A DNA stretch of 64,000 nt from an uncultured Bacilli bacterium (lineage in GTDB: Bacteria > Bacillota_I > Bacilli_A > RF39 > UBA660), in assembly GCA_934085595.1 (NCBI GenBank), contig CAKOHK010000001.1, positions 77,429 to 141,428 of the forward strand, in the 5' to 3' direction. The translations under genes and the position numbers were made by a program. This document shows, piece after piece, positions 6,428 to 60,495 of this stretch (its first letter is position 1; each line of letters begins with the position of its first letter). The notes under the pieces are model-generated. The model was not told the origin of the DNA. It was given only the letters and a program-made list of their open reading frames with translations, and ran no database searches.

Positions 6428-6612
6428 TGTGCTAATAATAAATATGCTTCTTTACCATCAGTATATTTTAACTCTAACTTTGTAGTATTCACATTAATAG
6501 TCTCTACTACATCATTACCACTTATAGTTAAGCTAAATATACATAAGTAAGTACTATTGTTAACAAAAATACTGACAATAACCCACTTGTAAATATAAAC
6601 TTTTTATCTTTC
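6428..6612 (-). pseudogene. Frameshifted/truncated N-terminal remnant of the TasA-like variable-protein family
   Basis: The reverse strand reads MMKDKKFIFTSGLLSVFLLTIVLTYVYLA*, then ...SGNDVVETINVNTTKLELKYTDGKE in another frame. A 1-nt deletion relative to the paralogues (YAYFSLVVSGNDV) causes the frameshift. The family's upstream promoter and 5'UTR sequence is retained at 6613-6680. Confidence 0.7.
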
Positions 6613-6675
6613 ATCATATTTTCCTCTATTCTCTATTAGTACTACAATTTAACTAATTATACATTTCAATGTCAA

Positions 6676-6712
6676 AGCCAAACAAAAAGCAAACACTTCT
6701 CATGTTTGCTTT
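6676..6712 (-). terminator. Rho-independent terminator downstream of tig
   Basis: Stem AAAGCAAACA / TGTTTGCTTT (6686-6695 / 6703-6712), followed on the minus strand by TTTTGTTTGG. Confidence 0.6.
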
Positions 6713-13121: not shown

Positions 13122-14570
13122 TTATTGAATAACAAAAGGATTATCAGTGCTTCCATCACCTGATATATATTTGACATTAGTATCAAGATATACAGACTGA
13201 CGCAATCCGCCGCTGCGGTTCGTACCAGTGTAGTCCACACCACCGTTGCTGAACACACCCAACGCACCAGCTGAGACATACGAAATAGGCGACACGGCCC
13301 AAAACCAATTACTTGTATCTAATAGCCAGTTAGTACTTTTACATGTTTCACTTCTATAGTCTGTATTATATGGTGAAGAACCACTATCATCATAACCTTT
13401 TTTAGTATCATCATTATAACATGCGCTACTTGCATACATATAATCACTTGGATATATTAATGCTACTTTCCCATCCCATGTTTGTTTATTTCCATTATGT
13501 ACATTAGTACTTCTTTCTTGAGTATATATTTCTTTTGTAGTTCCATATCCAACATTATTTGTCCACACAACACTCCCAAGGTACCATTTTGTACTGCTTA
13601 TTTGACCTTTTGCTTTATCTGTTAAGCCATTGCTTGCATATGTACCTGTTCTATTGTAATACTCTCCTCTATTTAATGTGGTCATTAATGTAGCGGTCGT
13701 CCAGTCATTATAGTTTGTTGCTGAATTAGTCTCGTTCCATACTGCTGTTCCGATGCTTTCCCTTACTATTTTGACTTTATTTTCTCTCGTGTATGTTCCA
13801 TCACCATTAGGTGTTTCTGCTTCAAATACTCCAATTATTCTCCACACTCCAGTTTCCCCATTAAATGTTATATAGTTATTTGGAGTTTTACCCTGGTATC
13901 TATATTCTGTTGTTGCATAGTTTTGATTGCCTGATGCTGTTTGGTCTATTTTTGTTAAACCTAATGTACTATAATTATCTATTAGATAATTTGTAAGTAT
14001 TACTTTCTTACTACTCTCTGCTGCCGCAAGAACTCCATAGAACTTTTTACCTTGGTTATAATTTTGCGCTTTATCTTCATAATTTATAAACTCTATAGTT
14101 ACTGTATAAGTGTGTTTCTCACCCGGCAATATTTTCACATTTTCTTTATATGGATATATTACTTTATTTGTTTCTGCGGTTACTTCTGAAGTTTGTGGGA
14201 TAATCACATTTTCAGTATTATCACATGTTCCACCAGTAGCTCCACTACTTATACATGTACTTCTTATAACAAGTTCCTCTTTTTGAATCTCATTATAAAG
14301 CTTTTGCCATCCTAAAGCATAATATGCTTCTTCATTACCAGTATTTTCTACAGTTATAGTTTTAGTAGTTGTCCATTTTGGCTCAATACTATCTACTTTA
14401 ATTTCTTTTCCATCAGTATAAATTAATTCAATCTTAGTAGTACTTACATTTATAGTTTCTGCTACATCATTACCACTTACTACTAAGCTAAAATATGCAT
14501 AAGTAATTCCGGTAATTATTAAAAACACACTTGTAAGTATTACTGCTAATAATATTTTTTTATCTTTCAT
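13122..14570 (-). CDS. Secreted hypervariable protein, paralogue 1: TasA/camelysin-like N-terminal domain (SipW-type signal peptide) + conserved C-terminal domain ending in a DGR-type variable repeat
   Basis: 482 aa. The N-terminus MKDKKILLAVILTSVFLIITGITYAYFSLVVSG resembles the SipW-cognate AYFSD class. The block ...ITVENTGNEEAYYAL...DKAQNYNQGKKFYGVL parallels camelysin (...FLLQNSGSL...GKDQNIFQGDSLNLEW). The C-terminal ~40 codons (approx 13185-13305) are GC-rich and differ from the paralogues mainly at positions that are Asn codons in the 51567..51797 copy. Confidence 0.8.
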   Translation of the reverse strand: MKDKKILLAVILTSVFLIITGITYAYFSLVVSGNDVAETINVSTTKIELIYTDGKEIKVDSIEPKWTTTKTITVENTGNEEAYYALGWQKLYNEIQKEELVIRSTCISSGATGGTCDNTENVIIPQTSEVTAETNKVIYPYKENVKILPGEKHTYTVTIEFINYEDKAQNYNQGKKFYGVLAAAESSKKVILTNYLIDNYSTLGLTKIDQTASGNQNYATTEYRYQGKTPNNYITFNGETGVWRIIGVFEAETPNGDGTYTRENKVKIVRESIGTAVWNETNSATNYNDWTTATLMTTLNRGEYYNRTGTYASNGLTDKAKGQISSTKWYLGSVVWTNNVGYGTTKEIYTQERSTNVHNGNKQTWDGKVALIYPSDYMYASSACYNDDTKKGYDDSGSSPYNTDYRSETCKSTNWLLDTSNWFWAVSPISYVSAGALGVFSNGGVDYTGTNRSGGLRQSVYLDTNVKYISGDGSTDNPFVIQ

Positions 14571-14676: not shown

Positions 14677-16251
14677 TTATAATGATGAAACAGGTTCTTC
14701 TTTAAATCTTAAAGCAATATATCCAACTGTAAATGCCCCTAGTATTGCAAGTAATAAAGTACCATAATCTTCTACACCAGTTTTAGCATTATATTCTAGT
14801 TTAACTTCATTATGAGGATTAACATCAATAATCTTAGCACTTACTATTACTACTTGATCTAGTTTAGATTCTGAATAGAACAATCTTCCTCTATTACTAT
14901 CAGTATTATATACTTTACCTTTACCATCTAAATCAATATTAATTTGAGTAGTAGATTTATATTTATTATCTATTCTTATATAGAACTCTGAATATCCTTC
15001 ATTATCACTATTATTAATATTTGTTACATTATATACTTTCTTACCATCTACTTCACTATATGGAAGTTCTTTTAAATCTTTATCCACTAAAGTAACACCT
15101 TCAGAAGGATTTGTAACTTTAGCAGTTATGCTATTCCAATCAGTAACTAACATTTTAGATTTAACTTTATATGGTCCATAATATTCAGCATCACTTTCAC
15201 TTTTATATGCTTCTTTACTTGGAAGTTCAAGTACTAATTCATTTTTATATGTGTCATCTACATATTTATCTCTATCTTTAATTAAGAATTGATATAATTT
15301 ATTAAGTTCACTATTACCAACTAATGTATCACCTAAATATAATTTATTTTCCCCATCAAGTTCATAATATTCCCCTATTACTTTCCATACTGCATATTGT
15401 ACAGTAGCATACACAGCATTACTTACATTTTCTTCACTATTATTTAAAGATGAAAGTAATGTTTCATAAGATACTCCAGCATATTCTAAACTATCTTTTA
15501 AACTTAGTGATGGATAACTATGCTCTATAATATATAAAGCTTTTCTATATCCTATACTATCACTCATTTCACTTGCTGTATAATGGTTAATCATAAAATC
15601 ACTTTTCTTAAATGTTACACTTACTTTACCATCAACTATTTCTTTTCCAAGACTAGATGCTATATCATTAGCATTTAATAATTTAACATCTCTACTATTA
15701 GCTTTTGGTATAAAACCTATACTAGTCATACTAGAAGTAATCTCTTCTCCATTATTAAATGCAGTAATAGTGCTTTCACTAGGATCACTTACCATATCAA
15801 CATAATATCCAGTAACATCATCTATACCATCAAGTAAATTACAACCACTTTTATTATTACATTCTTTTAATATTTGAAAAGCAGTCATTATTTTAATTAA
15901 ATCTTTACCACTCATAGTAGTAGCAATATATTGATATTCTGGATATTTTTTATTTCCATCCATACAATAAGCACTAAAATAATTACTTTCATTTCCACTA
16001 TAAATAATTTTCATATCACTTTTACCAGTAATATACTTATCATTTACATTAGTAGTAAACTTAACATAACTATAGTCAAAAGAATCTCCTACTGTAAAGT
16101 CTCTCTTATCCCCTACATTAAATCCACTTTCATTTATTTTAGGAATTATTCTAGCACTATTAGCACTTTGACTTGCTGCTATAACATCAGTTTTTAACAT
16201 AAAACCTAAAACAAAAGTAAATAAAACAAACAATAAAAATCTTTTTTTCAT
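14677..16251 (-). CDS. Secreted surface protein, putative thioester-domain (TQXA-like) adhesin with C-terminal sorting-signal-like anchor
   Basis: 524 aa with a signal peptide (MKKRFLLFVLFTFVLGFMLKTDVIAAS). A Cys-containing motif SAYCMDGNKKYPE is present, together with a Gln motif ATVQYAVWKV resembling TQXA(V)W. The C-terminus YNAKTG-VEDYGTLLLAILGAFTVGYIAL-RFKEE looks like an LPXTG-type tripartite signal with a non-canonical NAKTG motif. Confidence 0.4.
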   Translation of the reverse strand: MKKRFLLFVLFTFVLGFMLKTDVIAASQSANSARIIPKINESGFNVGDKRDFTVGDSFDYSYVKFTTNVNDKYITGKSDMKIIYSGNESNYFSAYCMDGNKKYPEYQYIATTMSGKDLIKIMTAFQILKECNNKSGCNLLDGIDDVTGYYVDMVSDPSESTITAFNNGEEITSSMTSIGFIPKANSRDVKLLNANDIASSLGKEIVDGKVSVTFKKSDFMINHYTASEMSDSIGYRKALYIIEHSYPSLSLKDSLEYAGVSYETLLSSLNNSEENVSNAVYATVQYAVWKVIGEYYELDGENKLYLGDTLVGNSELNKLYQFLIKDRDKYVDDTYKNELVLELPSKEAYKSESDAEYYGPYKVKSKMLVTDWNSITAKVTNPSEGVTLVDKDLKELPYSEVDGKKVYNVTNINNSDNEGYSEFYIRIDNKYKSTTQINIDLDGKGKVYNTDSNRGRLFYSESKLDQVVIVSAKIIDVNPHNEVKLEYNAKTGVEDYGTLLLAILGAFTVGYIALRFKEEPVSSL

Positions 16252-24815: not shown

Positions 24816-25736
24816 ATGCATAAAAAATATATACTACTAACTTTTATATTAATAATATTTTTACTTAATATAAACATAGTACTTTCATCAGTAACTGAAG
24901 CTTCAGTTATATTTTATACCAAGATATTTGTATCAGTATTTCCATTTATAATATTATCAAACATATTAATATATTTTAATTATCACTTATTCTTAAATAA
25001 AATATTTAAAAAACCACTAAATAAACTATTTAATATATCTTCTTCCTCTATAATATTTATACTAAGTATTTTATCAAGTATGCCATCAAACTCTATATAT
25101 ACTAAAAACTTACTTGATAACAAATTAATAAATACTACTGAAGCAAATAAAATATTAACTTTTACATACTTTCCATCTATAAGTTTCATGATCGGTACGG
25201 TGGGTTATAAAATGTTTAATAATATTAAAATAGGTATAATTTTATTATTATCTAACTACATATATAATATTTTAATAGGTATATATTTAAGAAAAGATAA
25301 AATTAACTTCACTTTAGAAAATGAAAACTCTATCAATAAAACATCATTTTTTGATATGTTAACAAATACCATATTAAATGCATTTAAAACATGCGCTATT
25401 ATATTAGGTAACTTAATAATATTTATAATTATAATAAATATATTAAATAAATATTTAAATATAAATAATACTTTATTATCTATACTATCAGGACTACTTG
25501 AATTAACAACTGGAAGTGATATGTTATCTTTATTAGATATTAATATAAACTTAAAAATAGCTCTTACTTCTCTAATAATTAACTTTAGTGGTCTATCTAT
25601 ATTATTTCAATCTAAAAGTATATTAAATGATTATAATATAAATATAAAAAGAATATTAATTATTAAACTAATATTCTCTATAATAATATCTATTTTATTA
25701 TATATATTCTTATATTATAGTGCTTTATATTCATAA
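24816..25736 (+). CDS. Polytopic integral membrane protein (possibly YlbJ-like sporulation membrane protein)
   Basis: 306 aa with multiple hydrophobic helices. It is divergent from the YlbL-like gene, as ylbJ is in Bacillus. The match is weak. Confidence 0.45.
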   Translation: MHKKYILLTFILIIFLLNINIVLSSVTEASVIFYTKIFVSVFPFIILSNILIYFNYHLFLNKIFKKPLNKLFNISSSSIIFILSILSSMPSNSIYTKNLLDNKLINTTEANKILTFTYFPSISFMIGTVGYKMFNNIKIGIILLLSNYIYNILIGIYLRKDKINFTLENENSINKTSFFDMLTNTILNAFKTCAIILGNLIIFIIIINILNKYLNINNTLLSILSGLLELTTGSDMLSLLDININLKIALTSLIINFSGLSILFQSKSILNDYNINIKRILIIKLIFSIIISILLYIFLYYSALYS

Positions 25737-26326
25737 TTTTTATAATTTGAATATAACTTTACATCATAATTTCTATCACTAGCAATTATAGTTATAATAA
25801 ATACTTTTTCTTTATTACTTATATCTATAGTAGTATTAGTAATAGAAGCAAAATGATAATTATATACATTTATAAGTTTACTAGCACTATCATTTCCTTC
25901 ATAATTAGAAGTTGATTTAATAGTTTTAATAAACATATTTTTATCATTCTTACTATCTCTATATTCAATAGTACTATAAGTTTCAATACTAAATCCATTA
26001 CTTCCTCTATTAGTATAATTTTTTTTATCCTTTTTTATTCTAAGAGCAAGACTTCTCTCTTCCCCATCCATTAGTTTAATATTGCACATATATCTATTAT
26101 CATTTTCTTTATTACAAGAAACTTCTCTTATTCCATCATGTGCTATAAAATCATCATTTATAATATTACTAGTAAGACTACCAAATACTTTAATATCAGT
26201 ATCATTATCACTATCATTATATACTTCTCTAAGTCTTATTAAACTAGACATCATAAATACAAGTATAACACTAACAAGAGTAATACTAACAAGTAACTCT
26301 ATTAAAGTAAATCCTTTCTTATTCAT
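25715..26326 (-). CDS. Prepilin-type N-terminal cleavage/methylation domain protein (type IV pilin/pseudopilin-like)
   Basis: The N-terminus MNKKGFTLIELLVSITLVSVIL matches the class III signal (G-F-T-L-I-E, with Glu at +5). Confidence 0.7.
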   Translation of the reverse strand: MNKKGFTLIELLVSITLVSVILVFMMSSLIRLREVYNDSDNDTDIKVFGSLTSNIINDDFIAHDGIREVSCNKENDNRYMCNIKLMDGEERSLALRIKKDKKNYTNRGSNGFSIETYSTIEYRDSKNDKNMFIKTIKSTSNYEGNDSASKLINVYNYHFASITNTTIDISNKEKVFIITIIASDRNYDVKLYSNYKNYEYKAL

Positions 26327-26330
26327 ATAT

Positions 26331-26813
26331 TTACTCCATTTCTATAGAAGCATAATAATATTTCCCGTTTCTATAAAACACCCCTACTGCATAAGTCTTA
26401 TTATTATCTTTCTCTTTATCACTTATATATTCTAAATAATTAATAGTTCCACTTTGATATCTACTATAATTGTTTTTAACTTCATTACTTAGATTTTTAA
26501 TAACACCAGCATATAACAAATCATACTTTTTCATAACACTATCACATGAACTTATATATTTATTTATATCACTACTACTACAGTTATCTCTTCTAGTAAA
26601 GAAATTACTTCCATAAGTTATATAATTATCTTTAAGTGTAGTACCAATATTCATAAAAGTATAAAGAGCATATATATCACTTGAATTATCATAATATGTA
26701 TTAATATCTACTCTTTTCATAATAATAGTATAATTAACAAGTAACATACTAGTAGCTAACGCAACCACTGTAAGAACAGCAATAGTTTCTAAAAACACAA
26801 ATCCTTTTTTCAT
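26331..26813 (-). CDS. Pseudopilin-like protein
   Basis: The N-terminus MKKGFVFLETIAVLTVVAL is prepilin-like (G-F-V-F-L-E). 160 aa. Confidence 0.6.
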   Translation of the reverse strand: MKKGFVFLETIAVLTVVALATSMLLVNYTIIMKRVDINTYYDNSSDIYALYTFMNIGTTLKDNYITYGSNFFTRRDNCSSSDINKYISSCDSVMKKYDLLYAGVIKNLSNEVKNNYSRYQSGTINYLEYISDKEKDNNKTYAVGVFYRNGKYYYASIEME

Positions 26814-27712
26814 AGTTTCACCACATATGGACTATAATATTTTCCATTTCCTCTTTTAACTCTAACACTGCTTTTGAAAGATATAACGCCCTTTAAATAA
26901 GCATTAGAAGTATAACTTGTACTAACTAAAGTATTATTATATACATATATATTATTACCACTTCTTGACATAGTCCATATATTATTAGGAATATAAGAAT
27001 TAGATAAACCACTAAGTACTACTTCACTAGCACTAACAAGCCCCATAGGATATTTAAGTTTACCGTTTCCATTATAACTAGAAACACTATAAGAATAATT
27101 AGAACACTTTAACGATATACTAGAATTATACACATCAGCACAATAAACACTATCTTCTAAATAATCTTTATACTTTAATATATTATTTTCATAAAAACTA
27201 TCTAAATTATTTTTAACATTACTACTTTCATATAAATTATTACTAGTAGAATAACTAACTAAACTTCCATTATCAACACTACATGCTTCATTACTATATT
27301 TTCCATAATATATTGCCCTAACTCCAGAAGAAGTATTACTTTTAATAATTCTAAAACACATATTTCCAAGAGCCACAAAATTATTAACATCTTTTCCCCT
27401 ATAATAATATATCTTATTACTATCTAAAGTTCTATATAAAAGCCCTTCTCCATTAGTACTACTACTATTTTTAGTAAAATCTATAGAAGAATCACTAACC
27501 GGATTATTATCATTAATTATTCTGCATAAAAGAAAATCACTATCACTATCGCACATACCATAATTAAGTTTAATTTCGCTCTCTACTTTTTCATTTATAG
27601 TATTTAAATAATTAAGTTTCCTAGTATAATTAAGTACTATTATTACATTAATAAATACAAAAACTATAAAAAATGAATAAACAAGTGTAGTTGAAACAAA
27701 TCCCTTTTTCAT
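26810..27712 (-). CDS. Pseudopilin-like protein (minor pilin, lacks Glu+5)
   Basis: N-terminus MKKGFVSTTLVYSFFIVFVF. 300 aa, Ser/Tyr/Asn-rich. First gene of a three-gene overlapping operon. Confidence 0.5.
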   Translation of the reverse strand: MKKGFVSTTLVYSFFIVFVFINVIIVLNYTRKLNYLNTINEKVESEIKLNYGMCDSDSDFLLCRIINDNNPVSDSSIDFTKNSSSTNGEGLLYRTLDSNKIYYYRGKDVNNFVALGNMCFRIIKSNTSSGVRAIYYGKYSNEACSVDNGSLVSYSTSNNLYESSNVKNNLDSFYENNILKYKDYLEDSVYCADVYNSSISLKCSNYSYSVSSYNGNGKLKYPMGLVSASEVVLSGLSNSYIPNNIWTMSRSGNNIYVYNNTLVSTSYTSNAYLKGVISFKSSVRVKRGNGKYYSPYVVKL

Positions 27713-27831: not shown

Positions 27832-28503
27832 ATGAAAAAGAAATTAAATAGACTTTTATCTAGTATTTTATGTACTCTTAGCATTATATCTTTAAGTTCA
27901 TGTGCTAAAGATACGAATTGTGATATTGATATTAAGCATTATCATATTTATAAAAATGAAGAAACGGGTTATAGTAAGTTTTCTAAAGGCGAAAAAGAAT
28001 ATATACATACTTTAGAAGGTACTTTATATAAAACTGATGCTTATGCTTACATAGATGATTATACTAATATGCTTTACAAAAATAATTTATCTTATGTATT
28101 TGATAATAAAGATTATTTAAGAACTAAAATGACTCGTATAGATGAAAGAGAAGAATATAAACTTGTATCTAAATATGGCTATCATTATTCTTATGAGTAT
28201 GATTATAATCCAGCGACTGAAGAATATGAATTCTTTTATGGTAATCATTACGGATATTATGAAGAGTATGATTGGGTAGAAATATCTCCATATGAATACA
28301 CTTATAATAAAGTAAGAGATATACACTACACTTATAAGTTTTATAAATATGAAGATGGTAAATTAATATCAAAAACATTTGATAAATTAGAAGATGTACC
28401 AAGTGAATATAATTTATTTAATTCTTCTTCCTTAATTGTAAAAGAAATATCTGATGATTATTATTTAACACCTGAAAATACAAAAACAATAAAAAATAAT
28501 TAA
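27832..28503 (+). CDS. Tyr-rich lipoprotein
   Basis: The signal peptide has a lipobox (LSIISLSSC-AKD). The mature part is very Tyr/Glu-rich (YEYDYNPATEEYEFFYGNHYGYYEEYDW). Confidence 0.65.
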   Translation: MKKKLNRLLSSILCTLSIISLSSCAKDTNCDIDIKHYHIYKNEETGYSKFSKGEKEYIHTLEGTLYKTDAYAYIDDYTNMLYKNNLSYVFDNKDYLRTKMTRIDEREEYKLVSKYGYHYSYEYDYNPATEEYEFFYGNHYGYYEEYDWVEISPYEYTYNKVRDIHYTYKFYKYEDGKLISKTFDKLEDVPSEYNLFNSSSLIVKEISDDYYLTPENTKTIKNN

Positions 28504-28554
28504 AAAAGTATTGAAAAACATGTATAATTATGATATATTTTATACATGTCTTAT

Positions 28555-28631
28555 GGCGATGTAGCTCAGTTGGCTAGAGCACACGGTTCATACCCGTGGT
28601 GTCGAGGGTTCGAATCCCCCCGTCGCTACCA
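28555..28631 (+). tRNA. tRNA-Met (CAT), elongator-type
   Basis: 77 nt GGCGATGTAGCTCAGTTGGCTAGAGCACACGGTTCATACCCGTGGTGTCGAGGGTTCGAATCCCCCCGTCGCTACCA. The cloverleaf has a CAU anticodon and an encoded CCA. The acceptor and anticodon arms resemble Bacillus elongator tRNA-Met. An upstream promoter TTGAAA-N17-TATATT lies at 28511-28539. Confidence 0.85.
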
Positions 28632-28665
28632 AAAAGATATTTACCCAAAACTTGGGTTTAATAAA

Positions 28666-28698
28666 AACTAATTCTAAAAAGGAATTAGTTTTTTATTA
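28666..28698 (+). terminator. Rho-independent terminator after tRNA-Met
   Basis: Stem AACTAATTC(28666-28674) loop TAAAAAG GAATTAGTT(28682-28690), followed by TTTTTATTATT. Confidence 0.7.
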
Positions 28699-28848
28699 TT
28701 CAAAATAAAAACTATAACTATAAAGTCATCTATAGCACTTCTATTATAACTTCAATATCACCACCCTTCACTTAACAAATCATATATCATAAATTGACAA
28801 ACATATCAAAAAATGATAATATAATTACCAATTTGGAGAAACACATTA

Positions 28849-29876
28849 TGGAAGAAAGAAATAAAGAAAAATTAATAGAGCTAAATAATATAGCAGACAT
28901 GATAAGACTAAGTTATCTTAAATTAGAAAAACTAGAAATGGAAGGAAAACAAGATACTAAAGCTTATCATGAAACTATTGAATATTTAAAATCTCAAATA
29001 GAAATGGAAGAAAATACTTATAAAAGATTTTGTTCTACTTATGAAGAAGCTCGCTCTCTAGCAGCAATAGTTTGTAAAAGATTATATAATGATGATGATA
29101 TAGAAAACAAAAACTCTATTACGTTAGAAAATGGTAGTATTTTTAATGGTAAACTAGAAGATTCAAATAACAAAAGAATATTAGATAAATTAATGGACTA
29201 TATGGATAAAGATACAAAAGGAACTTTAAAAGCACTTACCAATGCTGATAATATGGTAGCATTATTATCAATAATAAATAGTTCACTAGAAACAGAAATA
29301 GCAAGAACATCTGCAATATTAAAATCAATCAAATATGATATAACTATTCTAGTTCTTAAATATTTAGATGAATATATAAATGACGATAAATATAAAAATA
29401 TAAGAGAAACTCTTATAAGAATTAAATACTATATAATTTATACAAAAACAATTATGGAATATAGTTTAATTAATAATTCTTTTGAACTTCCAAAAGATAT
29501 AATCTTAACATCTAAAATGGTTCATGAATATAATACACCAGAAAATATAGGCGAATATGAAGATAATACAGATACAGTTATAACTAACAATACAATAGTT
29601 ATAATGAATGATATTGTTGCTTTAAACGATTCAGAAATAACCGATCCAAATAATATATGTGCTATCATGAAAATATGTTTCTTTAAAGCATATATGACAT
29701 TAATAAGTAGTTCTACAAGTGAAATATTAAAAGAAGCATACTTACAATATACAAGTTCAGAAGGATATAAAAAGAACAATAAAAACTATAAAATAACAGA
29801 AGAAACAATATTATCTATCATAAACGAAACAGAAAAATATAAAAAATGTATAAGTAGATTCACATTAAAAAGATAA
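28849..29876 (+). CDS. Hypothetical cytoplasmic protein
   Basis: The ORF track gives 28794..29876. The start is preferred at ATG 28849 (MEERNKEK...), which has a GGAG RBS. The protein is alpha-helical with no known motifs. Confidence 0.45.
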
Positions 29877-29902: not shown

Positions 29903-31636
29903 TTAATTTATAACAAATGGATTACTCTTAGTTCCATCACCACTTACATAGTTTACCTTAGTATTAAGATACACAGACTGACGCACGCTACCATAGTTAA
30001 TTGAGCTGGTGTAATCCACATTACCATAAACGTTCACAAACATTGCATTACCCGGATGGTTAGAATTTAGTGACACAACCCAATACCACGCTCCAATAAA
30101 TAACCAATTAGTATTAATGCATTTTTCATTTCTATAATCTTTGCTTGAATCAGAAACATTATTAGCTTTCATTGTATTGTCATTATAGCATGCACTACTT
30201 GCATACATATAATCACTCGAATATATAAGTGCTACTTTCCCATCCCATGTTTGTTTTTTGCCACTATGTACACTTGTGCTTCTTTCTTGAGCGTACATTT
30301 CTTTTGTATTACCATAACCAACATCAGAAACCCACGTTCCATTTCCTAAATACCATTTTGTCATGCTTATTTGACTTTTTGCAGTACTTGTTAAGCCATT
30401 ATTTGCATATGTACCCACTTTATTGTAGTAATCTCCATTATTTAACAACTTCATCAGTGTTGCGGTTGTCCAGTCATTATACGATTTTGTAGAGTTCCAT
30501 TCAATCAATCCAATTCTATCTCTTACTATCTTTACCTTATATTCTTTTGTATATCCACTTCCATTTGGTGTTTCTACTTCAAAAACTCCAATAATTCTCC
30601 ACACTCCAGTTTCATCATTGAATGTTATATAGTTGTTTGGAGTTTTACCTTGATATCTATATTCTGTTGTAGCATAATTCTGATTACCTGTCGCCGTTTG
30701 TGATATTTTAGTTAGACCAAATAGTGTATAATTATCTTTTAAACAATTAGCTAATGTTTTACCTGTGCATATGCTTTCAAGAGTACTTTTCCAGTGTGCA
30801 TACAAAGTATGATTAGTATTAGTTGTAACTTTAGTATTTGCATTAACTTTTACTCCACCATTTAAAGAAGTGTACCAGCCCATAAAATCATATCCGCTCT
30901 TAACTGGAGTACATAACTCACCATAGTTTAATCCATATGATACGTCTTTAGAACTACAGCCTGATCCTCCATTATTATCATATGTTAGCTTAACTTTATT
31001 TTCTATAAAATTGATAGTACATTTTTCATCTTTAACAATATTCTTAAAGGTAATCTTATCATTATTAACTATTATATTTGTGCAAGTACTACTATAGTAT
31101 TTATATCCAGTTTTAGGAGTAACTGTAAATATAGCATCTCCTCCATCATAAACAAAAGCATATGCTGGACTTACAGTTCCTTTATTTTCATCACTACTTG
31201 ATACTTCAAGTAAATTATAAGGCACAAACTTCCAAGGATCTTTATAAGTACCTCTTCCTATAATTTTAACTTCTTTCTTAATATACTCTGTTACTCTAAT
31301 ATTACTATCAGTACTTGATTCATTATTTATCACTTTTCCATCAATAGTAAAATAAGGCAATGATGTAACTAAATATGAAGAATCATCTGTTTTAGATGAG
31401 TTCACTTCATATATATTTATAAGTCCACCAGTATTAAATCCATTTACATATGATATAGTTTTATTGTTATATCCAAATGGTATTTTAGATGTATTTATTA
31501 GATATGCTATATTTTTTCTATTATTTTTTATATAGTTATTACTTATATCTTTACCTTCATCAAAACTATAAGCGTTAATATTACTAATAAACATAAATAT
31601 ACATAAAAAACTAATTATTTTAAATACTCGTTTCAT
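29903..31636 (-). CDS. Secreted hypervariable protein, paralogue with alternative N-terminal region and the family's C-terminal domain + variable repeat
   Basis: 577 aa with a different signal peptide (MKRVFKIISFLCIFMFISNINAYSF) and a ~290-aa N-terminal region. From ...LFGLTKISQTATGNQNYATTEYRYQGKTPNNYITFN onward it is homologous to the family's C-terminal domain. The C-terminus ...GNAMFVNVYGNVDYTSSINYGSVRQSVYLNTKVNYVSGDGTKSNPFVIN aligns to the TR-like copy. Confidence 0.75.
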   Translation of the reverse strand: MKRVFKIISFLCIFMFISNINAYSFDEGKDISNNYIKNNRKNIAYLINTSKIPFGYNNKTISYVNGFNTGGLINIYEVNSSKTDDSSYLVTSLPYFTIDGKVINNESSTDSNIRVTEYIKKEVKIIGRGTYKDPWKFVPYNLLEVSSSDENKGTVSPAYAFVYDGGDAIFTVTPKTGYKYYSSTCTNIIVNNDKITFKNIVKDEKCTINFIENKVKLTYDNNGGSGCSSKDVSYGLNYGELCTPVKSGYDFMGWYTSLNGGVKVNANTKVTTNTNHTLYAHWKSTLESICTGKTLANCLKDNYTLFGLTKISQTATGNQNYATTEYRYQGKTPNNYITFNDETGVWRIIGVFEVETPNGSGYTKEYKVKIVRDRIGLIEWNSTKSYNDWTTATLMKLLNNGDYYNKVGTYANNGLTSTAKSQISMTKWYLGNGTWVSDVGYGNTKEMYAQERSTSVHSGKKQTWDGKVALIYSSDYMYASSACYNDNTMKANNVSDSSKDYRNEKCINTNWLFIGAWYWVVSLNSNHPGNAMFVNVYGNVDYTSSINYGSVRQSVYLNTKVNYVSGDGTKSNPFVIN

Positions 31637-36929: not shown

Positions 36930-38351
36930 TTATTCTATAACAAACAGATTATTACTACTACCATCACCTGACATGTATTTGACACTAGTATCAAGATATA
37001 CAGACTGACGCACGCCGCCGGAGCTGAAACTCGTATCGCCCGTATTCACCTTACCGGAATTGTTCACATACCTCGCACCGTCCGAACTGCTAGAACTAGG
37101 CGACACGGCCCAAAACCAATTATTCGTATCTAATAACCAGTTAGTACTTTTACAAATTGAATCATCATAGTTAAAACCTATTGTTCCATTATTGTAGCAA
37201 CTGCTACTCGCATACATATAATCACTTGGATATATTAGTGCTACTTTTCCATCCCATGTTTGTTTATTTCCACTATATACATTAGTACTTTTTTCTTCTT
37301 GATATGTTCCTTGACAATCCTTACTACTACTTCCATAAGTAACATTTCCTAAGTACCATTTTGTACTACTTATCTGATTTTTTGCATTTTCTGTTAAACC
37401 GTTGCTTGCATATGTACCTGTTCTATTGTAATACTCCCCACTATTTAATGTGGTCATTAATGTAGCGGTCGTCCAGTCATTATAGTTTGTAGCTGAATTA
37501 GTTGCATTCCATGCTGCTTTTCCTATTGTATCTCTTACTATTTTAACTTTATTTTCTTTTATATATGTTCCGTCACTTTGTGGTGTTTCCACTTCGAATA
37601 CTCCAATTATTCTCCATACTCCTGTTTCACCATTGAACGTTATATAGTTGTTTGGTGTTTTACCTTGATACCTATATTCACTTGCTGCATAATTTTGATT
37701 ACCTGTTGCTGTTTGGTCAATTTTTGTTAAACCTAATGTACTATAATTATCTATTAAGTAGTTTGCAAAAGTTTGAGTTTGTTCTTTTCCACTACTTTCT
37801 GCTGCTCCAAGAACTCCATAGAATCTTTTGCCTTGATTATAATTTTGTGCTTTATCTTCATAATTTATGAACTCAATAGTTACAGTATAAGTGTGTTTCT
37901 CACCTGGTAATATTAATACATTTTCTTTATACGGATATAATACTTTATTTGCTGCAGCATTTACTTCTGATGTTTGAGGGATAGCTACATTGTCTGTACT
38001 TGAGCAAGTCCCTCCTGTTGCTCCACTACTTGTACATGTACTTCTTATAACAAGTTCTTCTTTTTGAATCTCATTATATAGTTTTTGCCATCCCAAGGCA
38101 TAATATGCTTCTTCATTACCGGTATTTTCTACTGTTATAGTTTTAGTAGTTGACCATTTAGGCTCAATATTATCTACTTTAATTTCATTTCCATCAGTAT
38201 AGATTAATTCTATTTTAGTAGTACTTACATTAATAGTCTCTGCTACATCATTACCACTTACCACTAAACTAAAGTATGCATAAGTAATTCCTGTAATAAT
38301 CAAAAATACACCTGTAAGTAATACTGCTAATAATATTCTTTTATCTTTCAT
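36930..38351 (-). CDS. Secreted hypervariable protein, paralogue 3 (TasA-like N-domain + C-terminal domain with variable repeat)
   Basis: 473 aa, ~85% identical to paralogue 1 outside the C-terminal variable block (~36993-37113). That block is GC-rich: ...SPSSSSSDGARYVNNSGKVNTGDTSFSSGGVRQSVYL. The gene has its own promoter TTGACT-N17-TATAAT (38379-38407) and an AGGAG RBS. Confidence 0.8.
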   Translation of the reverse strand: MKDKRILLAVLLTGVFLIITGITYAYFSLVVSGNDVAETINVSTTKIELIYTDGNEIKVDNIEPKWSTTKTITVENTGNEEAYYALGWQKLYNEIQKEELVIRSTCTSSGATGGTCSSTDNVAIPQTSEVNAAANKVLYPYKENVLILPGEKHTYTVTIEFINYEDKAQNYNQGKRFYGVLGAAESSGKEQTQTFANYLIDNYSTLGLTKIDQTATGNQNYAASEYRYQGKTPNNYITFNGETGVWRIIGVFEVETPQSDGTYIKENKVKIVRDTIGKAAWNATNSATNYNDWTTATLMTTLNSGEYYNRTGTYASNGLTENAKNQISSTKWYLGNVTYGSSSKDCQGTYQEEKSTNVYSGNKQTWDGKVALIYPSDYMYASSSCYNNGTIGFNYDDSICKSTNWLLDTNNWFWAVSPSSSSSDGARYVNNSGKVNTGDTSFSSGGVRQSVYLDTSVKYMSGDGSSNNLFVIE

Positions 38352-49747: not shown

Positions 49748-51463
49748 TTACTCAATCACAAAAGGATTACCACTAGTTCCATCACCGCTTACATATTTTA
49801 TATTAGGACTAAGATATATCGAAGGACATAAACCAGCTGTAGAACTTTTAATTACAAGACCATTTATCAAATTACCGACATTATTTACGTATAATGCACC
49901 AAGTTTATCCACGGAAACAGGTGTTACACTCCAGTATCGTAATCCACTAAATAACCAATTAGTACTTGTGCATGTAGAATCAGAATAACCATTTCCCAAA
50001 ACTCCACTATTATAACATGTACTACTTGCATACAAATAATCGCTTGGATACATTAATGCTACTTTTCCATCCCATATTTGACTATTACCATTATGTACAC
50101 TTGTGCTTCTTTCTTGTACATATAAATCTTTTGCACTTTTATTGTTATCTCCATTTCCTAGATACCATTTTGTTGTGCTTATTTGGCTTTTTGCTTCAAT
50201 AGTTAATCCATTACTTAAATACGTACCGGTTCTGTTATAATAATCACCAGAATTTAATGTTGTCATTAACGTTGATGTAGTCCAATCGTTGTCGCCTTCA
50301 CTACCATTTTCATTCCAAGCTATATTTGTTTCAATACTATCTCTAATTATCTTTACTTTATTTTCTTTTGTATATATTCCATTCCCGTTAGGTGTTTCAA
50401 CTTCAAATACGCCTATTATTCTCCAAACATTATCTTCCCCATTAAATGTTATATAGTTATTTGGAGTTTTACCTTGATATCTATAGTCTACTGTTTCATA
50501 ATTTTGATTACCAGTTAGGGCTTGATTGATTTTAATTACATTTAAACTTTCATAATTATCAATTATATAATCTGACAATTTATAATCTAAATTAATATTG
50601 GATATCTTTTGATTATCAACAATAACATCAAGCCGTATATTTTTACTTATCGGTTTAACACTATAAGATTCATCAGATTTAATTATCTCGTTTTCTCCAT
50701 TAAAAAGTTTTATTTGAGTAGTAGTAATATCGTCATTATTGTCAACTGTTAAAGTATGATTACCAAGTTCTACATCATTAAATATTACTGTACCATTTTC
50801 ATCTGTTGTTCCAGTCATTGGTGTTGAATGTAATGTTACCTTGCTATTTGGAATAACAGTTCCATCAGTGTTTTTAACATTAAGTGTAAGATTATATGTA
50901 TTATATGCTTCAACAAGTCCTAAAACTCCGTAGAACTTTTTACCTTGATTATAGTTTTGTGCTTTATCATCATAATTTATAAACTCTATAGTTACCATAT
51001 AGGTATGAGTTTCTCCTGGTAATATTAGTGCTGCTTCTTTATATGGATACAATATCTTGCCAGATTCTCTGGTTACCTCTGCCGTTTGCGGAATAACAAC
51101 ATTATCTGTGTTATCACACGTACCACCTGTAACTCCACTACTTGTGCATGTACTTCTGATTACTAGTTCTTCTTTTTGAATCTCATTATATAATTTTTGC
51201 CATCCTAAAGCATAATATGCTTCTTCATTACCAGTATTTTCTACAGTAATTGTTTTAGTAGTAGTCCAGTTAGGCTCAATACTATCTACTTTAATTTCAT
51301 TTCCATCAGTATAAATTAATTCAAGTTTAGTAGTACTTACATTAATAGTTTCTGCTACATCATTACCACTTACTACTAAGCTAAAATATGCATAAGTAAT
51401 TCCAGTAATTATTAAAAACACACTTGTAAGTATTACTGCTAATAATATTCTTTTATCTTTCAT
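49748..51463 (-). CDS. Secreted hypervariable protein, paralogue 4 (TasA-like N-domain + inserted CnaB/CarboxypepD_reg-like domain + C-terminal domain with variable repeat)
   Basis: 571 aa. An extra ~115-aa segment NVKNTDGTVIPNSKVTLHSTPMTGTTDENGTVIFNDVELGNHTLTV shows the TDENG...G.YTL pattern of Cna-B/carboxypeptidase-regulatory-like domains. The variable block is ~49811-49935 (…VDKLGALYVNNVGNLINGLVIKSSTAGLCPSIYL). The promoter TTGAAA-N17-TATACT lies at 51490-51518. Confidence 0.8.
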   Translation of the reverse strand: MKDKRILLAVILTSVFLIITGITYAYFSLVVSGNDVAETINVSTTKLELIYTDGNEIKVDSIEPNWTTTKTITVENTGNEEAYYALGWQKLYNEIQKEELVIRSTCTSSGVTGGTCDNTDNVVIPQTAEVTRESGKILYPYKEAALILPGETHTYMVTIEFINYDDKAQNYNQGKKFYGVLGLVEAYNTYNLTLNVKNTDGTVIPNSKVTLHSTPMTGTTDENGTVIFNDVELGNHTLTVDNNDDITTTQIKLFNGENEIIKSDESYSVKPISKNIRLDVIVDNQKISNINLDYKLSDYIIDNYESLNVIKINQALTGNQNYETVDYRYQGKTPNNYITFNGEDNVWRIIGVFEVETPNGNGIYTKENKVKIIRDSIETNIAWNENGSEGDNDWTTSTLMTTLNSGDYYNRTGTYLSNGLTIEAKSQISTTKWYLGNGDNNKSAKDLYVQERSTSVHNGNSQIWDGKVALMYPSDYLYASSTCYNSGVLGNGYSDSTCTSTNWLFSGLRYWSVTPVSVDKLGALYVNNVGNLINGLVIKSSTAGLCPSIYLSPNIKYVSGDGTSGNPFVIE

Positions 51464-51542
51464 TCTATGTACTCCTATTCTCTATTAATAGTATACTTTA
51501 ATTAAATCTATATTTCAATATCAAAAAAAGCTAAGCATAATA

Positions 51543-51797
51543 AAAAAATGAACATAAGTTCATTAATTATTGTATCACAAATGGATTATCAGTAGTCCCA
51601 TCACCACTTATATAATTTATGTTAGTGTCCAAGTAAACGGAGGTACGCACACCGCCAGAGCTGTTGTTCGTATTATTGTTGTTCACATTACCGTTGTTGT
51701 TCACATTCATCGCATTGTTCGAATTGTTAGAACTAGGCGACACGGCCCAAAATACAAGACTTGCTAAGGGGCTAACCCTATTAAAGGCAAATGCCAT
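51543..51797 (-). other. Putative DGR template repeat (TR): non-genic, Asn(AAC/AAT)-rich copy of the family's 3' end including terminator
   Basis: Homology to the target 3' ends starts at FWAVSP (~51762) and runs through the stop (51567) and the ATGAAC/GTTCAT terminator (51543-51563). The TR encodes WAVSPSSNNSNNAMNVNNNGNVNNNNTNNSSGGVRTSVYLDTNINYISGDGTTDNPFVIQ, with 15 Asn among the 40 variable-block codons. The preceding 15 codons are not homologous and there is no RBS or promoter of its own. Confidence 0.6.
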
Positions 51798-51829: not shown

Positions 51830-51859
51830 GTGCCCGCACAGTTCCACCGTGCAGGGCAC
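51830..51859. promoter_or_regulatory. GC-rich nested hairpin between target 5 stop and TR (no U-tract)
   Basis: The sequence is GTGCCC-GCAC-AGTTCCACC-GTGC-A-GGGCAC. It is about 68% GC in a ~25% GC genome. It lies 17 bp downstream of the paralogue-5 stop (51876) and 33 bp upstream of the TR-like copy. Confidence 0.6.
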
Positions 51860-51875
51860 TTTACATTTTCTCTTT

Positions 51876-53393
51876 TTATTCTATCTCAAACGCCTTTTCT
51901 GTAGTACCATCTCCTCCTATGTACTTTACGCTGGAATCAAGATATACGGACTGGCGCAAGCCGTTGCCGCTGTAGTACGTAACACTGTTGCCCACAAGAC
52001 CGTCGCTGTTCACAACCATCGCACGGCCCGAACCGGTAGAACTAGGCGACACGGTCCAAAACAAATTATTTGTATCTAATAACCAGTTAGTACTAGTACA
52101 AGTTTCACTTCTATAATCCGTATTATATGGTGAAGAACCATTAGAGTCATACGCTTTTTTAGTATCGTCATTATAACATGCACTACTTGCATACATATAA
52201 TCACTCGGATATATTAATGCTACTTTCCCATCCCATGTTTGTTTATTTCCACTATGTACACTAGTACTTCTTTCTTGAGTATATATTTCTTTTGTAGTTC
52301 CATATCCAACATTACTTGTCCACACTACATTTCCTAAGTACCATTTTGTACTACTTATCTGATTTTTTGCATTATCTGTTAAACCGTTGCTTTCATAATT
52401 ACATATCGCTGTTTCGCTTGTTGTAGTATCATATCCAGTTGAACAAGCAAGCTGTGTATAGCCAGAAGTCCTATTATAGTATGGTCCGGTATTTAACATT
52501 GTCATTAAAGTTGATGTTGTCCAGTCATTGTAATAATTTAATGAACCCTTACGATCCCATGCTACTCCTCCTATTTTATCTCTTACTATCTTTACTTTAT
52601 TTTCTTTTGTATATGTTCCGTCACTTTGTGGTGTTTCCACTTCGAATACTCCGATTATTCTCCATACATTTTGTTCTCCATTAAATGTTATATAGTTATT
52701 TGGAGTTTTACCTTGATATCTATATTCTATAGTGTTATAGTTTTGGTTACTTGTCGCTGTTTGTTCTATTTCTGTTAAACCTAATGTACTATAATTATCT
52801 ATTAAATAGTTTGCAAGAGTTGGTAATTTCTTAGTGCTTTCTGCTGCTCCAAGAACTCCGTAGAACCTTTTGCCTTGATTATAGTTTTGATGTTTATCAG
52901 TGTAATTTATAAACTCTATAGTTATCGTATAAGTATGAGTTTCTCCTGGTAATATTAATACATTTTCTTTATATGGATATAATACTTTATTTGCTGTAGC
53001 ATTCACTTCTGATGTTTGAGGGATAATTACATTATCAGTACTATCACATGTTCCTTCTGTTACTCCACTACTTATGCATGTACTTCTTATAACAAGCTCA
53101 TCTTTTTGAATCTCATTATATAGTTTCTGCCATCCTAAAGCATAATATGCTTCTTCATTACCTGTGTTTTCTACTGTAATAGTTTTAGTAGTTGTCCAAC
53201 TCGGCTCTATGCCATTTGCTTTAATTTCTTTTCCGTCTGTGTACTTTAGTTCTATTTTAGTAGTACTTACATTTATAGTTTCCGCTACATCGTTACCACT
53301 TACTACTAAACTAAAGTATGCATAAGTAACTCCAGTAATTATTAAAAATACACTTGTAAGTATTACTGCTAATAATATTCTTTTATCTTTCAT
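51876..53393 (-). CDS. Secreted hypervariable protein, paralogue 5 (TasA-like N-domain + C-terminal domain with variable repeat)
   Basis: 505 aa. Variable block ~51939-52060 (…SPSSTGSGRAMVVNSDGLVGNSVTYYSGNGLRQSVYL). Promoter TTGACA-N18-TATAAT at 53421-53450. The RBS AGGAG precedes ATG 53393. Confidence 0.8.
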   Translation of the reverse strand: MKDKRILLAVILTSVFLIITGVTYAYFSLVVSGNDVAETINVSTTKIELKYTDGKEIKANGIEPSWTTTKTITVENTGNEEAYYALGWQKLYNEIQKDELVIRSTCISSGVTEGTCDSTDNVIIPQTSEVNATANKVLYPYKENVLILPGETHTYTITIEFINYTDKHQNYNQGKRFYGVLGAAESTKKLPTLANYLIDNYSTLGLTEIEQTATSNQNYNTIEYRYQGKTPNNYITFNGEQNVWRIIGVFEVETPQSDGTYTKENKVKIVRDKIGGVAWDRKGSLNYYNDWTTSTLMTMLNTGPYYNRTSGYTQLACSTGYDTTTSETAICNYESNGLTDNAKNQISSTKWYLGNVVWTSNVGYGTTKEIYTQERSTSVHSGNKQTWDGKVALIYPSDYMYASSACYNDDTKKAYDSNGSSPYNTDYRSETCTSTNWLLDTNNLFWTVSPSSTGSGRAMVVNSDGLVGNSVTYYSGNGLRQSVYLDSSVKYIGGDGTTEKAFEIE

Positions 53394-58791: not shown

Positions 58792-58825
58792 AATAAATAA
58801 AAAAAGAAGTACAACACTTCATTAT

Positions 58826-58915
58826 TTAATCACAAATGGATTACTAGCGCTTCCATCTCCACTTACATATTGTGCTGTATCATTACCGCTTACTACTAAA
58901 CTAAAATATGCTTGT
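58826..58915 (-). pseudogene. Internal-deletion remnant of the hypervariable-protein family (start region fused to last ~17 codons)
   Basis: 58830-58880 matches the family's 3' end (ttatttaatcacaaatggattactagcgcttccatctccacttacata). 58881-58920 matches the 5' coding region (…tgctgtatcattaccgcttactactaaactaaaatatgc). The reading frame is broken (MKDTSIF*). The junction falls in ACTTAC microhomology. Downstream is a degenerate terminator hairpin GAAGT-ACAAC-ACTTC. Confidence 0.65.
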
Positions 58916-59038: not shown

Positions 59039-60415
59039 TTATTGTTTTTTAATATCATACCCGTCTCTCTTATCAAGTATTTCGTATCCCACATCAAGTA
59101 ACTTATTACGTAATAAATCACTTTTAGCATAGTCTTTATTTAATTTAGCATTCCATCTTTCCTCTGCCATTTTAACTACTTCTTCTGGTATTTCACTCTT
59201 TTCTTCATCTTCTTCTTTATCAAGTTCAAGACCAAGTACTTTATCAAAATCAATAATTAAATTATAAATATCAATAGACGCTTCTTCTTTTAATATAGTA
59301 AACATTTCTCCAATTGCTAAAGGAGTATTTAAGTCATCATTAACAGCATCTAATAGTCTTTTCTTATATTCATCTATTTTTTCACTACTAATCTTTCTAT
59401 CACTATTCTTATGTTCAAGTAACATTTTCTTAAGACTCTTTCTAGCACTTCTAGCACTATCTAAAGCATCAAATGTAAAATTAATAGTCTTTCTATAATT
59501 AGAGTTTAAACAGAAGAATTTAAAGTCTAAAGAACTATATCCTCTTTCTTCTAAATCTTTAAGAGTATATATATTATTTAAACTCTTACTCATTTTTCCA
59601 CCATCAACCATCAAGAACTCACAATGCATCCATCTCTTAACTACTCTATGTCCCATAGCACAATCATTTTGAGCTATTTCATTTTCATGATGTACACTTT
59701 TATGATCTACTCCTCCAGTATGTATATCTATATTTTCTCCAAGTATATCATTACTCATAACAGAACATTCTATATGCCATCCAGGACATCCAACTCCCCA
59801 AGGACTATCCCATTTCATAATATGATTTGGACTAACTATTTTCCATAACGCAAAATCAAATGGATGATGCTTATTTTCATTTTCTTCTATTCTACTATTT
59901 CTACTAGCATTCATATCTTTATTACTAAGCATTCCATATCCCTTAAATTTCATAACATCAAAATATAATCCATCATCAAGCATATAAGTATACCCTTTAT
60001 CTTCAAGTATCTTTATAAACTTAATCATCTTATCTATATATTCTGTAGCTTTAGTAATATGTTCTGGAATATCAATATTAAGTCTATTCAAATCTTCCAT
60101 AAATATATTAGTATAATATTCTGCTATTTCATAAGGACTTTTCTTTTCTCTTTTACTAGCAACTTCCATCTTGTCTTCCCCTTCATCTTCATCACTAGTT
60201 AAATGTCCTACATCTGTTATATTCATAACTCCATCTATTTTAAATCCATTATATTTAATAGTTCTTCTTAAGTTATCCATAAATATATAGGCTCTCATAT
60301 TACCTATATGAGGATAACTATATACAGTAGGCCCACATGAATACATCTTAACTACTTCTCCATATGGAACAAACTCTTCTTTCTTTCTACTTAATGAATT
60401 ATATAAACTAAGCAT
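59039..60415 (-). CDS. cysS: Cysteine--tRNA ligase
   Basis: The HIGH motif is HIGNMRAYI and the KMSKS motif is present. The start is at ATG 60415 (MLSLYNSLSRKKEEF), which has a GGAAGTG RBS; the ORF track extends to 60436. Confidence 0.9.
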   Translation of the reverse strand: MLSLYNSLSRKKEEFVPYGEVVKMYSCGPTVYSYPHIGNMRAYIFMDNLRRTIKYNGFKIDGVMNITDVGHLTSDEDEGEDKMEVASKREKKSPYEIAEYYTNIFMEDLNRLNIDIPEHITKATEYIDKMIKFIKILEDKGYTYMLDDGLYFDVMKFKGYGMLSNKDMNASRNSRIEENENKHHPFDFALWKIVSPNHIMKWDSPWGVGCPGWHIECSVMSNDILGENIDIHTGGVDHKSVHHENEIAQNDCAMGHRVVKRWMHCEFLMVDGGKMSKSLNNIYTLKDLEERGYSSLDFKFFCLNSNYRKTINFTFDALDSARSARKSLKKMLLEHKNSDRKISSEKIDEYKKRLLDAVNDDLNTPLAIGEMFTILKEEASIDIYNLIIDFDKVLGLELDKEEDEEKSEIPEEVVKMAEERWNAKLNKDYAKSDLLRNKLLDVGYEILDKRDGYDIKKQ

Positions 60416-60495
60416 ATTATCACTTCCTTTACCCAATTATAACATATCAAAAATAACTTGTCATTTAATTTTATAAATCAAATTAAAAAATAGAA

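Follow-up and report, generated by a model that had tools for sequence, protein, structure and literature searches.

An adenine-rich repeat behind a lectin-like gene of an uncultured gut Bacilli bacterium as a probable template of a diversity-generating retroelement

In a stretch of 64,000 nucleotides (nt) from an uncultured Bacilli bacterium (contig CAKOHK010000001.1, positions 77,429 to 141,428; hereafter the window), the minus strand at 51543-51797 carries a non-genic repeat without promoter, which copies the 3′ end shared by a family of genes for predicted secreted proteins. This copy is very probably a template repeat (TR), from which the variable repeats (VRs) of the family genes P5, P3 and P1, and of other paralogues, were derived by adenine mutagenesis; that estimate sums over three readings, weighed below, that invoke a diversity-generating retroelement (DGR). 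A DGR template was the core claim of the original prediction, which was made from the letters alone. The claim is strongly supported by the mismatch spectrum, the hypervariability of the columns templated by AAY codons (Y, C or T) among 108 family C-termini, the lectin-like fold of the target and a TR-specific block after a GC-rich junction. Our preferred reading, to which we give a probability of about one half, is that a real TR lies behind its target P5, is rarely used and is served in trans by a distant reverse transcriptase (RT).

As the original prediction described, the TR holds an open reading frame (ORF) of 76 codons without ribosome-binding site or promoter (51567-51797, minus strand; product MAFAFNRVSPLASLVFWAVSPSSNNSNNAMNVNNNGNVNNNNTNNSSGGVRTSVYLDTNINYISGDGTTDNPFVIQ); no Shine–Dalgarno-like sequence lies upstream of it. 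Codons 1-15 have, again as described, no counterpart in the family genes. Homology to the family runs from TTTTGGGCC (51752) through the stop codon and the terminator hairpin, and the 15 Asn codons counted earlier are all present (nine AAC and six AAT), inside codons 22-46. The terminator is an almost exact match to the terminators of P1 and P3 and to none of those of P2, P4 and P5. Read along the minus strand, the parts are as follows.

51876-51878, minus strand: stop codon of P5.
51859-51830, minus strand: GC-rich hairpin directly past the P5 stop, seen in sequence and fold, with no terminator call and no U-tract after it.
51829-51753 (77 nt), minus strand: TR leader, without family homology and including ORF codons 1-15; conserved in other strains.
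51752-51735 (18 nt), minus strand: 5′ homology anchor TTTTGGGCCGTGTCGCCT, common to the TR and the VRs and near-invariant in all VR-bearing genes.
51734-51660 (75 nt), minus strand: putative mutagenic core, TR codons 22-46, with 34 adenines, 15 AAY codons and adenine-specific mismatches to the VRs.
51659-51645, minus strand: GC-rich junction TCTGGCGGTGTGCGT, from alignments.
51644-51627, minus strand: TR-specific block ACCTCCGTTTACTTGGAC, from alignments; VRs carry CAGTCTGTATATCTTGAT here.
51626-51567, minus strand: gene-tail homology, the last 19 codons and stop of the family genes, with mismatches that are not adenine-biased.
51563-51542, minus strand: AT-rich hairpin and U-run (AUGAAC-UUAU-GUUCAU-U7), matching the P1 and P3 terminators.

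Because the hairpin at 51830-51859 is not followed by a U-tract, it is probably not a full terminator. The hairpin and U-run at 51542-51563 are the likely 3′ end of a TR RNA. The fold of the P5–TR RNA as a whole is not significant (z = -1.6). Past GGCGGnnTGCGT, every VR has CAGTCTGTATATCTTGAT where the TR has ACCTCCGTTTACTTGGAC, a difference that, judged by sequence, is like the asymmetry between IMH* and IMH (initiation of mutagenic homing) sites, by which DGRs fix directionality at the 3′ end of their repeats; some TR alleles of other strains carry the VR-type block. Four intact family homologues (P0030, P0041, P0046 and P0061) have a TR-type junction (…GGLRTSVYLDTN…) and not the usual RQS; they either resemble the gene from which the TR tail came or received the TR-type block by copying.

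The window contains five intact paralogues of the family, all on the minus strand.

13122-14570, minus strand: P1, target gene, with its VR at about 13212-13286.
29903-31636, minus strand: P2, family paralogue, non-cognate.
36930-38351, minus strand: P3, target gene, with its VR at 37023-37097.
49748-51463, minus strand: P4, non-cognate paralogue, directly downstream of the TR.
51876-53393, minus strand: P5, target gene directly upstream of the TR, with its VR at 51969-52043.

Two alignments of the TR to these genes were scored, a 108-nt core and the strict variable block at 51660-51734 (75 nt, with 34 A and 41 non-A sites). Over the core, TR adenines hold 22 of the 30 mismatches to P1 (Fisher p = 4e-8), 20 of the 29 to P5 (p = 1e-6) and 15 of the 24 to P3 (p = 4e-4); the 3′ tails of the same alignments show no adenine bias (p = 0.05-0.8). 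In the strict block, the TR and P5 differ at 20/34 A and 0/41 non-A sites, and the TR and P3 at 15/34 and 7/41, respectively. When ten distinct VRs from the window and related contigs are pooled, 181 of 340 A sites are changed (53%) compared with 43 of 410 non-A sites (10%; p = 2e-38), and the changes comprise 84 A>G, 62 A>T and 35 A>C. The TR and its VRs therefore form a pair that differs almost only at template adenines. Mismatches to P2 and P4 have no such bias over the 108-nt core (p = 0.19 and 0.41), so that three VRs in the window (those of P1, P3 and P5) are cognate. The block equivalent to the VR varies ordinarily among P4 orthologues (cluster 8).

These counts also bear on what the original prediction had said about the VRs. 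Its codon-by-codon comparison with P1 is exact, with ten codons changed only at adenines and two with non-A changes, and lacks only a one-codon deletion; the tabulation by TR base that it proposed gave the large excess at TR adenines reported above, for P1, P3 and P5 and in the pooled set. Its list of five VRs has to be shortened to three. The variable blocks are GC-rich, as claimed (57-59%), and the background of about 25% GC given for comparison is corrected to 31% for the remainder of each family gene and 18-35% for most 1-kb windows. The TR itself has not relaxed to the AT bias of the genome: AAC makes up 9 of its 15 Asn codons, compared with 6% in the genes of the window (p = 4e-8).

The family reaches well beyond these five genes. 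Its proteins have an N-terminal signal peptide followed by a weak match to camelysin (Peptidase_M73), and beyond that match belong to no Pfam family. Two more members lie just to the right of the window and three in another region of the same organism (cluster P0090), and a query with the C-terminal 293 residues of P1 returned 730 relatives, all from metagenomes or metagenome-assembled genomes (ENA, MGnify, NCBI and Logan) and none of them a named protein. Among 108 distinct family C-termini, the 15 AAY-templated columns have entropies of 2.7-3.6 bits, and their commonest residues (Asn, Ser, Tyr, Asp, Gly, His, Thr, Ile, Ala, Phe and Arg) can all be encoded by NNY codons (N, any base); the Ser, Ala, Val and Gly columns that lie in between stay at 0.2-1.4 bits. 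The three AAY codons beyond the block (codons 59, 61 and 71) reach 1.4-2.2 bits and are not hypervariable in the same way; at two of the three, the commonest residues include Lys, which no NNY codon encodes. This family-wide pattern of columns is the one predicted from adenine mutagenesis of this TR.

A structural model gives the target domain a C-type-lectin-like fold, with matches to Treponema denticola TvpA, the C-terminal domain of Legionella Lcl, many animal C-type-lectin-like domains (CTLDs) and FGE-type proteins. Known DGR targets usually carry the VR at their C terminus, in the ligand-binding part of a C-type-lectin or immunoglobulin fold; here, too, the domain ends with the variable block, and the model places the VR in the ligand-binding part of the C-type-lectin-like fold. 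The N-terminal C-type-lectin-like domain of an IgA peptidase from Thomasclavelia ramosa (PDB 9qa6), which the authors of the structure describe as a CTLD of about twice the usual size (PMC12237041), has 17% sequence identity to the target domain. It sits in a metallopeptidase, whereas the target proteins have a camelysin-like N terminus, and it is not known to be diversified by a DGR.

Much of this anatomy is shared with the DGR of Bordetella phage BPP-1 (mtd VR1–avd–TR–brt), which likewise has an adenine-rich TR, a C-terminal VR that closes a C-type-lectin fold, A-to-N changes, an AAY codon design and a GC-rich junction beyond which TR and VR carry unlike blocks (IMH* and IMH in the phage). 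In BPP-1, however, avd, TR and brt are contiguous (AY029185), whereas here tens of kilobases on either side are free of Avd and RT; this TR, unlike that of BPP-1, carries a whole gene tail and terminator, and there are several chromosomal targets in place of a single phage tail-fibre gene. The DGRs of T. denticola (TvpA) and Trichodesmium are likewise chromosomal, with many dispersed paralogous targets of the CLec/FGE type. Up to seven non-adjacent targets, some more than 100 kb away, belong to the Treponema DGR, and TR and RT on opposite strands are documented (PMC5758913); in Trichodesmium the TR is reported to accumulate as a separate small RNA of about 265 nt that has 12 targets (PMC6596454). 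All 48 architectures catalogued by Wu et al. keep the TR in the RT core (TR-RT, RT-TR or avd-TR-RT; PMC5758913), and the largest DGR survey requires a repeat no more than 1 kb from the RT (PMC8144416). Compared with the architectures of Wu et al., here the TR itself, and not the targets alone, is detached from the RT. A TR behind its own target and tens of kilobases from the RT is a variant, non-canonical DGR layout.

Canonical cassettes from low-GC gut bacteria provide a further comparison. Two metagenome loci (L125 and L127), from hosts with 26-27% GC, similar to the host studied here, have the order MutS_I-domain gene, bAvd, TR, RT, MutS_I-domain gene, with RTs of clusters P0204/P0205. Their TR design is very similar to that of the window (ASPSANNTNNVMNVNYNGNVNNNNYNNNN compared with SPSSNNSNNAMNVNNNGNVNNNNTNN); bAvd and RVT_1 lie on either side of these TRs, whose sequences do not match the family VRs. 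Their RTs would be the closest plausible relatives of the missing RT. The cassettes occupy L125:344-2841 and L127:9567-12087, and the RT of L125 is split in two by a frameshift. Contigs with this RT family are mostly short, as if assembly breaks at the cassette.

In the reading that we prefer, the TR would be built as a 3′ appendage of the target gene P5, in the order P5 stop, GC hairpin, 77-nt leader, 18-nt anchor, 75-nt template, junction and IMH*-like block, gene tail and terminator. Transcription would most likely come from read-through of P5, and the RNA would end at its own terminator. A DGR-type RT would copy this RNA and misincorporate opposite template adenines, and in P5, P3, P1 and further paralogues the cDNA would take the place of the homologous VR, with which the enlarged C-type-lectin-like domain ends, so that AAY codons would become NNY codons and scaffold codons would be kept. 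The RT, whose existence and identity we infer, would work in trans, from a locus no nearer than 22 kb on one side or 61 kb on the other, or from a mobile element. Homing would have to be rare, because the VR of each orthologue is fixed across strains, and present-day activity of the TR system is likewise something that we infer. A stronger, joint version of this proposal is a ‘split’ DGR, in which the TR is fixed on the chromosome as the 3′ untranslated region of one target, the RT is far away or on a visiting mobile element, and the targets are a family of at least ten dispersed, secreted, lectin-tipped paralogues; we put this version forward tentatively and consider it rather doubtful as a whole.

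A number of our results weigh against a TR that is still served in trans. No promoter-like site was found on the TR strand between the P5 stop and the TR ORF, and P1 and P3 have some non-A mismatches to this TR allele. In a comparison of ten protein clusters at 90% identity (77 members, from different hosts), VRs differ within clusters by 0-1 residue, whereas up to 45 differences are found elsewhere in the protein. The VR of P5 is identical in three assemblies and that of P1 in nine cluster members, and the VR of P3 is nucleotide-identical in five strains with differing flanks. The few cluster members that have a different VR also differ heavily in flanks and tail, which indicates recombination between paralogues; among the strains and hosts compared, VR heterogeneity with constant flanks was not seen between populations. 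Orthologous VRs are unchanged across the strains compared and give no sign of current activity: diversification is visible between paralogues and deeper lineages, not between strains. The original prediction had named a lack of variation in the VRs as grounds for giving up a DGR, and in part this is what was found, in that orthologous VRs are constant between strains from different hosts.

The RT searches point in the same direction. A six-frame scan of the window found no RT-like motifs (YxDD or [ILV]GxxxSQ), and precomputed Pfam calls for all genes, from 10 kb to the left of the window to 10 kb to its right, include no RVT_1, bAvd or MutS_I; apart from the two further family genes on the right, the 10-kb flanks contain only housekeeping genes. 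A wider set of about 80 loci (1.3 Mb), which included 73 metagenome loci around family members and the P0090 cluster of the organism, gave no phmmer match to the Brt and Avd of phage BPP-1 or to two gut DGR RT/Avd pairs. The P0090 region with its three family genes holds no RT. For the organism itself, the sequence read amounts to about 84 kb of a 137.5-kb scaffold (ENA ERZ28613964 scaffold_182, from a human-gut metagenome, with one substitution relative to the window in 4.5 kb) and scattered loci. The search is sensitive enough, because its positive control succeeded: a query with the TR-ORF protein returned ORFs from the TRs of other DGRs, very similar in design and with bAvd and RVT_1 beside them, and the Brt query picks up the RTs of those DGRs (E = 3e-15 and 3e-11). 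Unless it is absent, the RT therefore lies no closer than 22 kb on one side and 61 kb on the other. No RT of the DGR clade is encoded with the TR. DGR cassettes may also hold an accessory gene (Avd/bAvd, HRDC, MSL or CH1); here no bAvd or MutS_I genes were called, and three Avd queries had no phmmer match. Six TR-ORF alleles with the same leader peptide all adjoin family genes or a Zip gene, and never an RT. A search of genome contigs with an adenine-masked VR pattern returned chance matches only (high-GC Actinobacteria and one Rhodobacteraceae genome), and scans for the TR in viral contigs, phages and plasmids gave nothing relevant.

Related strains show how the TR itself is kept and reshuffled. 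Two other assemblies carry the hairpin, leader and TR with 100% identity. The leader is likewise 100% identical in L006 and L007, and in L034, L042 and L055 it matches, together with the hairpin, at 96-98%. At L034:8259-8600, L042:7707-8060, L055:758-1110 and L119:167-397, and in L120-L124, a P5-like gene, followed by the hairpin, the leader and the TR as far as its 5′ part, continues into a P3-like 3′ half. These fusions sit at the P3 locus with the P3 3′ flank, upstream of the Zip gene. They lack 12 nt and retain only about 10 Asn codons, and in some of them the junction block is of the VR type. They look like recombinants between TR and VR, and their place at the P3 locus indicates that the TR region recombines between family loci. 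Apart from these chimaeras, the 73 metagenome loci around family members contain no further TR. Several VRs share features with the variant TR allele, and either may have been the donor. An origin of the P3 VR from the variant allele (L034/L042/L055) was also considered: the allele fits the 3′ half better but lacks 12 nt that are present in P3.

The main rival to a TR in occasional use is a relic, in which the RT has been lost, the VRs have become ordinary genes under purifying selection and the TR is an inert appendage of P5. We regard a relic as possible, if on the unlikely side. It would fit the lack of RT and Avd in any reachable sequence, the constancy of orthologous VRs over strains and hosts, and the state of the TR in other strains, where reshuffling with the 3′ end of P3 is under way and four codons, as well as several Asn codons, are gone. 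An inert TR is harder to square with 15 intact AAY codons, 60% of them AAC compared with 6% in the genome, and with the perfect conservation of leader and TR among assemblies of this layout. Nor does it sit well with the VR of P5, which over 75 nt departs from this very TR allele at adenines only; its 0/41 non-A changes argue for a fairly recent homing event. The search for the RT, moreover, reached only a minor part of the genome. A working TR might instead lie beside an RT/Avd cassette elsewhere, this one being a duplicate that recombined behind P5 and is maybe unused. The canonical low-GC cassettes of gut metagenomes (L125, with 26% GC, and L127), whose TR design is so similar and whose RT family is large (2265 matches), would suit such an arrangement, as would the recombination of the TR between loci and its presence at the P3 locus in other strains. 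We nevertheless consider a secondary copy improbable: no RT-linked TR of this sequence was found, the six same-leader alleles adjoin family genes or Zip, the TR scans of viral contigs, phages and plasmids were empty, and the TRs of L125 and L127 do not fit the VRs. The leader bears only a marginal likeness to the sequence flanking the L125 TR, with a score reached by 66/2000 shuffles, and we rejected it as evidence of homology.

An explanation without a DGR, in which the repeat is a decayed pseudogene or a silent gene-conversion cassette of the pilS/vls kind and its Asn richness comes from AT drift and recombination, is very improbable. It would account for a promoterless 3′ partial copy among paralogues, and the TR/P3 chimaeras show that recombination with family genes occurs. 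But AT drift cannot explain the TR/VR pattern, because only one base on one strand is affected and the TR is also rich in AAC; drift would raise both A and T and favour AAT, whereas here changes fall on A of one strand (53% compared with 10%) and AAC dominates. Gene conversion would import Asn codons, not NNY codons at the exact AAY columns. A single cassette type is present and no archive, and segments copied unchanged, as from a silent cassette, were not seen: the repeats differ by A-to-N changes at fixed columns and are not mosaics of identity.

Nearly all genes of the window are on the minus strand. The genes include PolC, PolA, MurG, FtsQ, SepF and DivIVA and, linked to sporulation, YlbD/YlbE, SirA and SpoIIIAH, a set that marks the organism as a Firmicute; the organism is also present in the Hadza and other cohorts. 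Two orphan pieces of the family lie on the minus strand: a 5′ piece at 6448-6676, with promoter, signal-peptide region and the start of the N-domain, beside a UvrD-like helicase gene, and a 3′ tail piece with terminator at 58822-58885, upstream of 59039-60436. Other surface-protein genes stand beside the family at 14677-16251 and 25715-27712; a thioester-domain (TED) protein adjoins P1, and a separate run of small genes includes a prepilin-type N_methyl protein. Directly beside P2, a small plus-strand island interrupts the minus-strand region at 27832-29876, with GC and AT skew reversed at 28-30 kb. It holds two ORFs (223 and 360 amino acids) without Pfam match and a tRNA at 28555-28628, the only Rfam match of the window. 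Two direct-repeat pairs, 95-96% identical (160-268/3772-3880 and 1862-2059/3857-4054), flank the genes at 208-2046 and 2083-3759, of which the latter encodes an ABC_tran protein; the pairs suggest that this region was duplicated locally and recently.

A TR in this position bears on how DGRs are counted. Catalogues of DGRs find the RT first and look for repeats within about 1-20 kb around it (PMC8144416), and such RT-anchored surveys would therefore not report a system in which the TR is unlinked from its RT. If TRs are parked beside their targets and served in trans, then the number and reach of protein families diversified by DGRs are underestimated. Here, this would concern a low-GC Firmicute of the human gut and its large family of secreted proteins, so far unannotated, in which a camelysin-like N terminus is combined with a C-type-lectin-like domain. 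VRs that stay constant across hosts also bear on the question of whether chromosomal DGRs diversify their targets continuously or in rare bursts whose products are then fixed. Should the DGR prove to be ‘split’, diversification of the family would be gated by the presence or induction of the RT.
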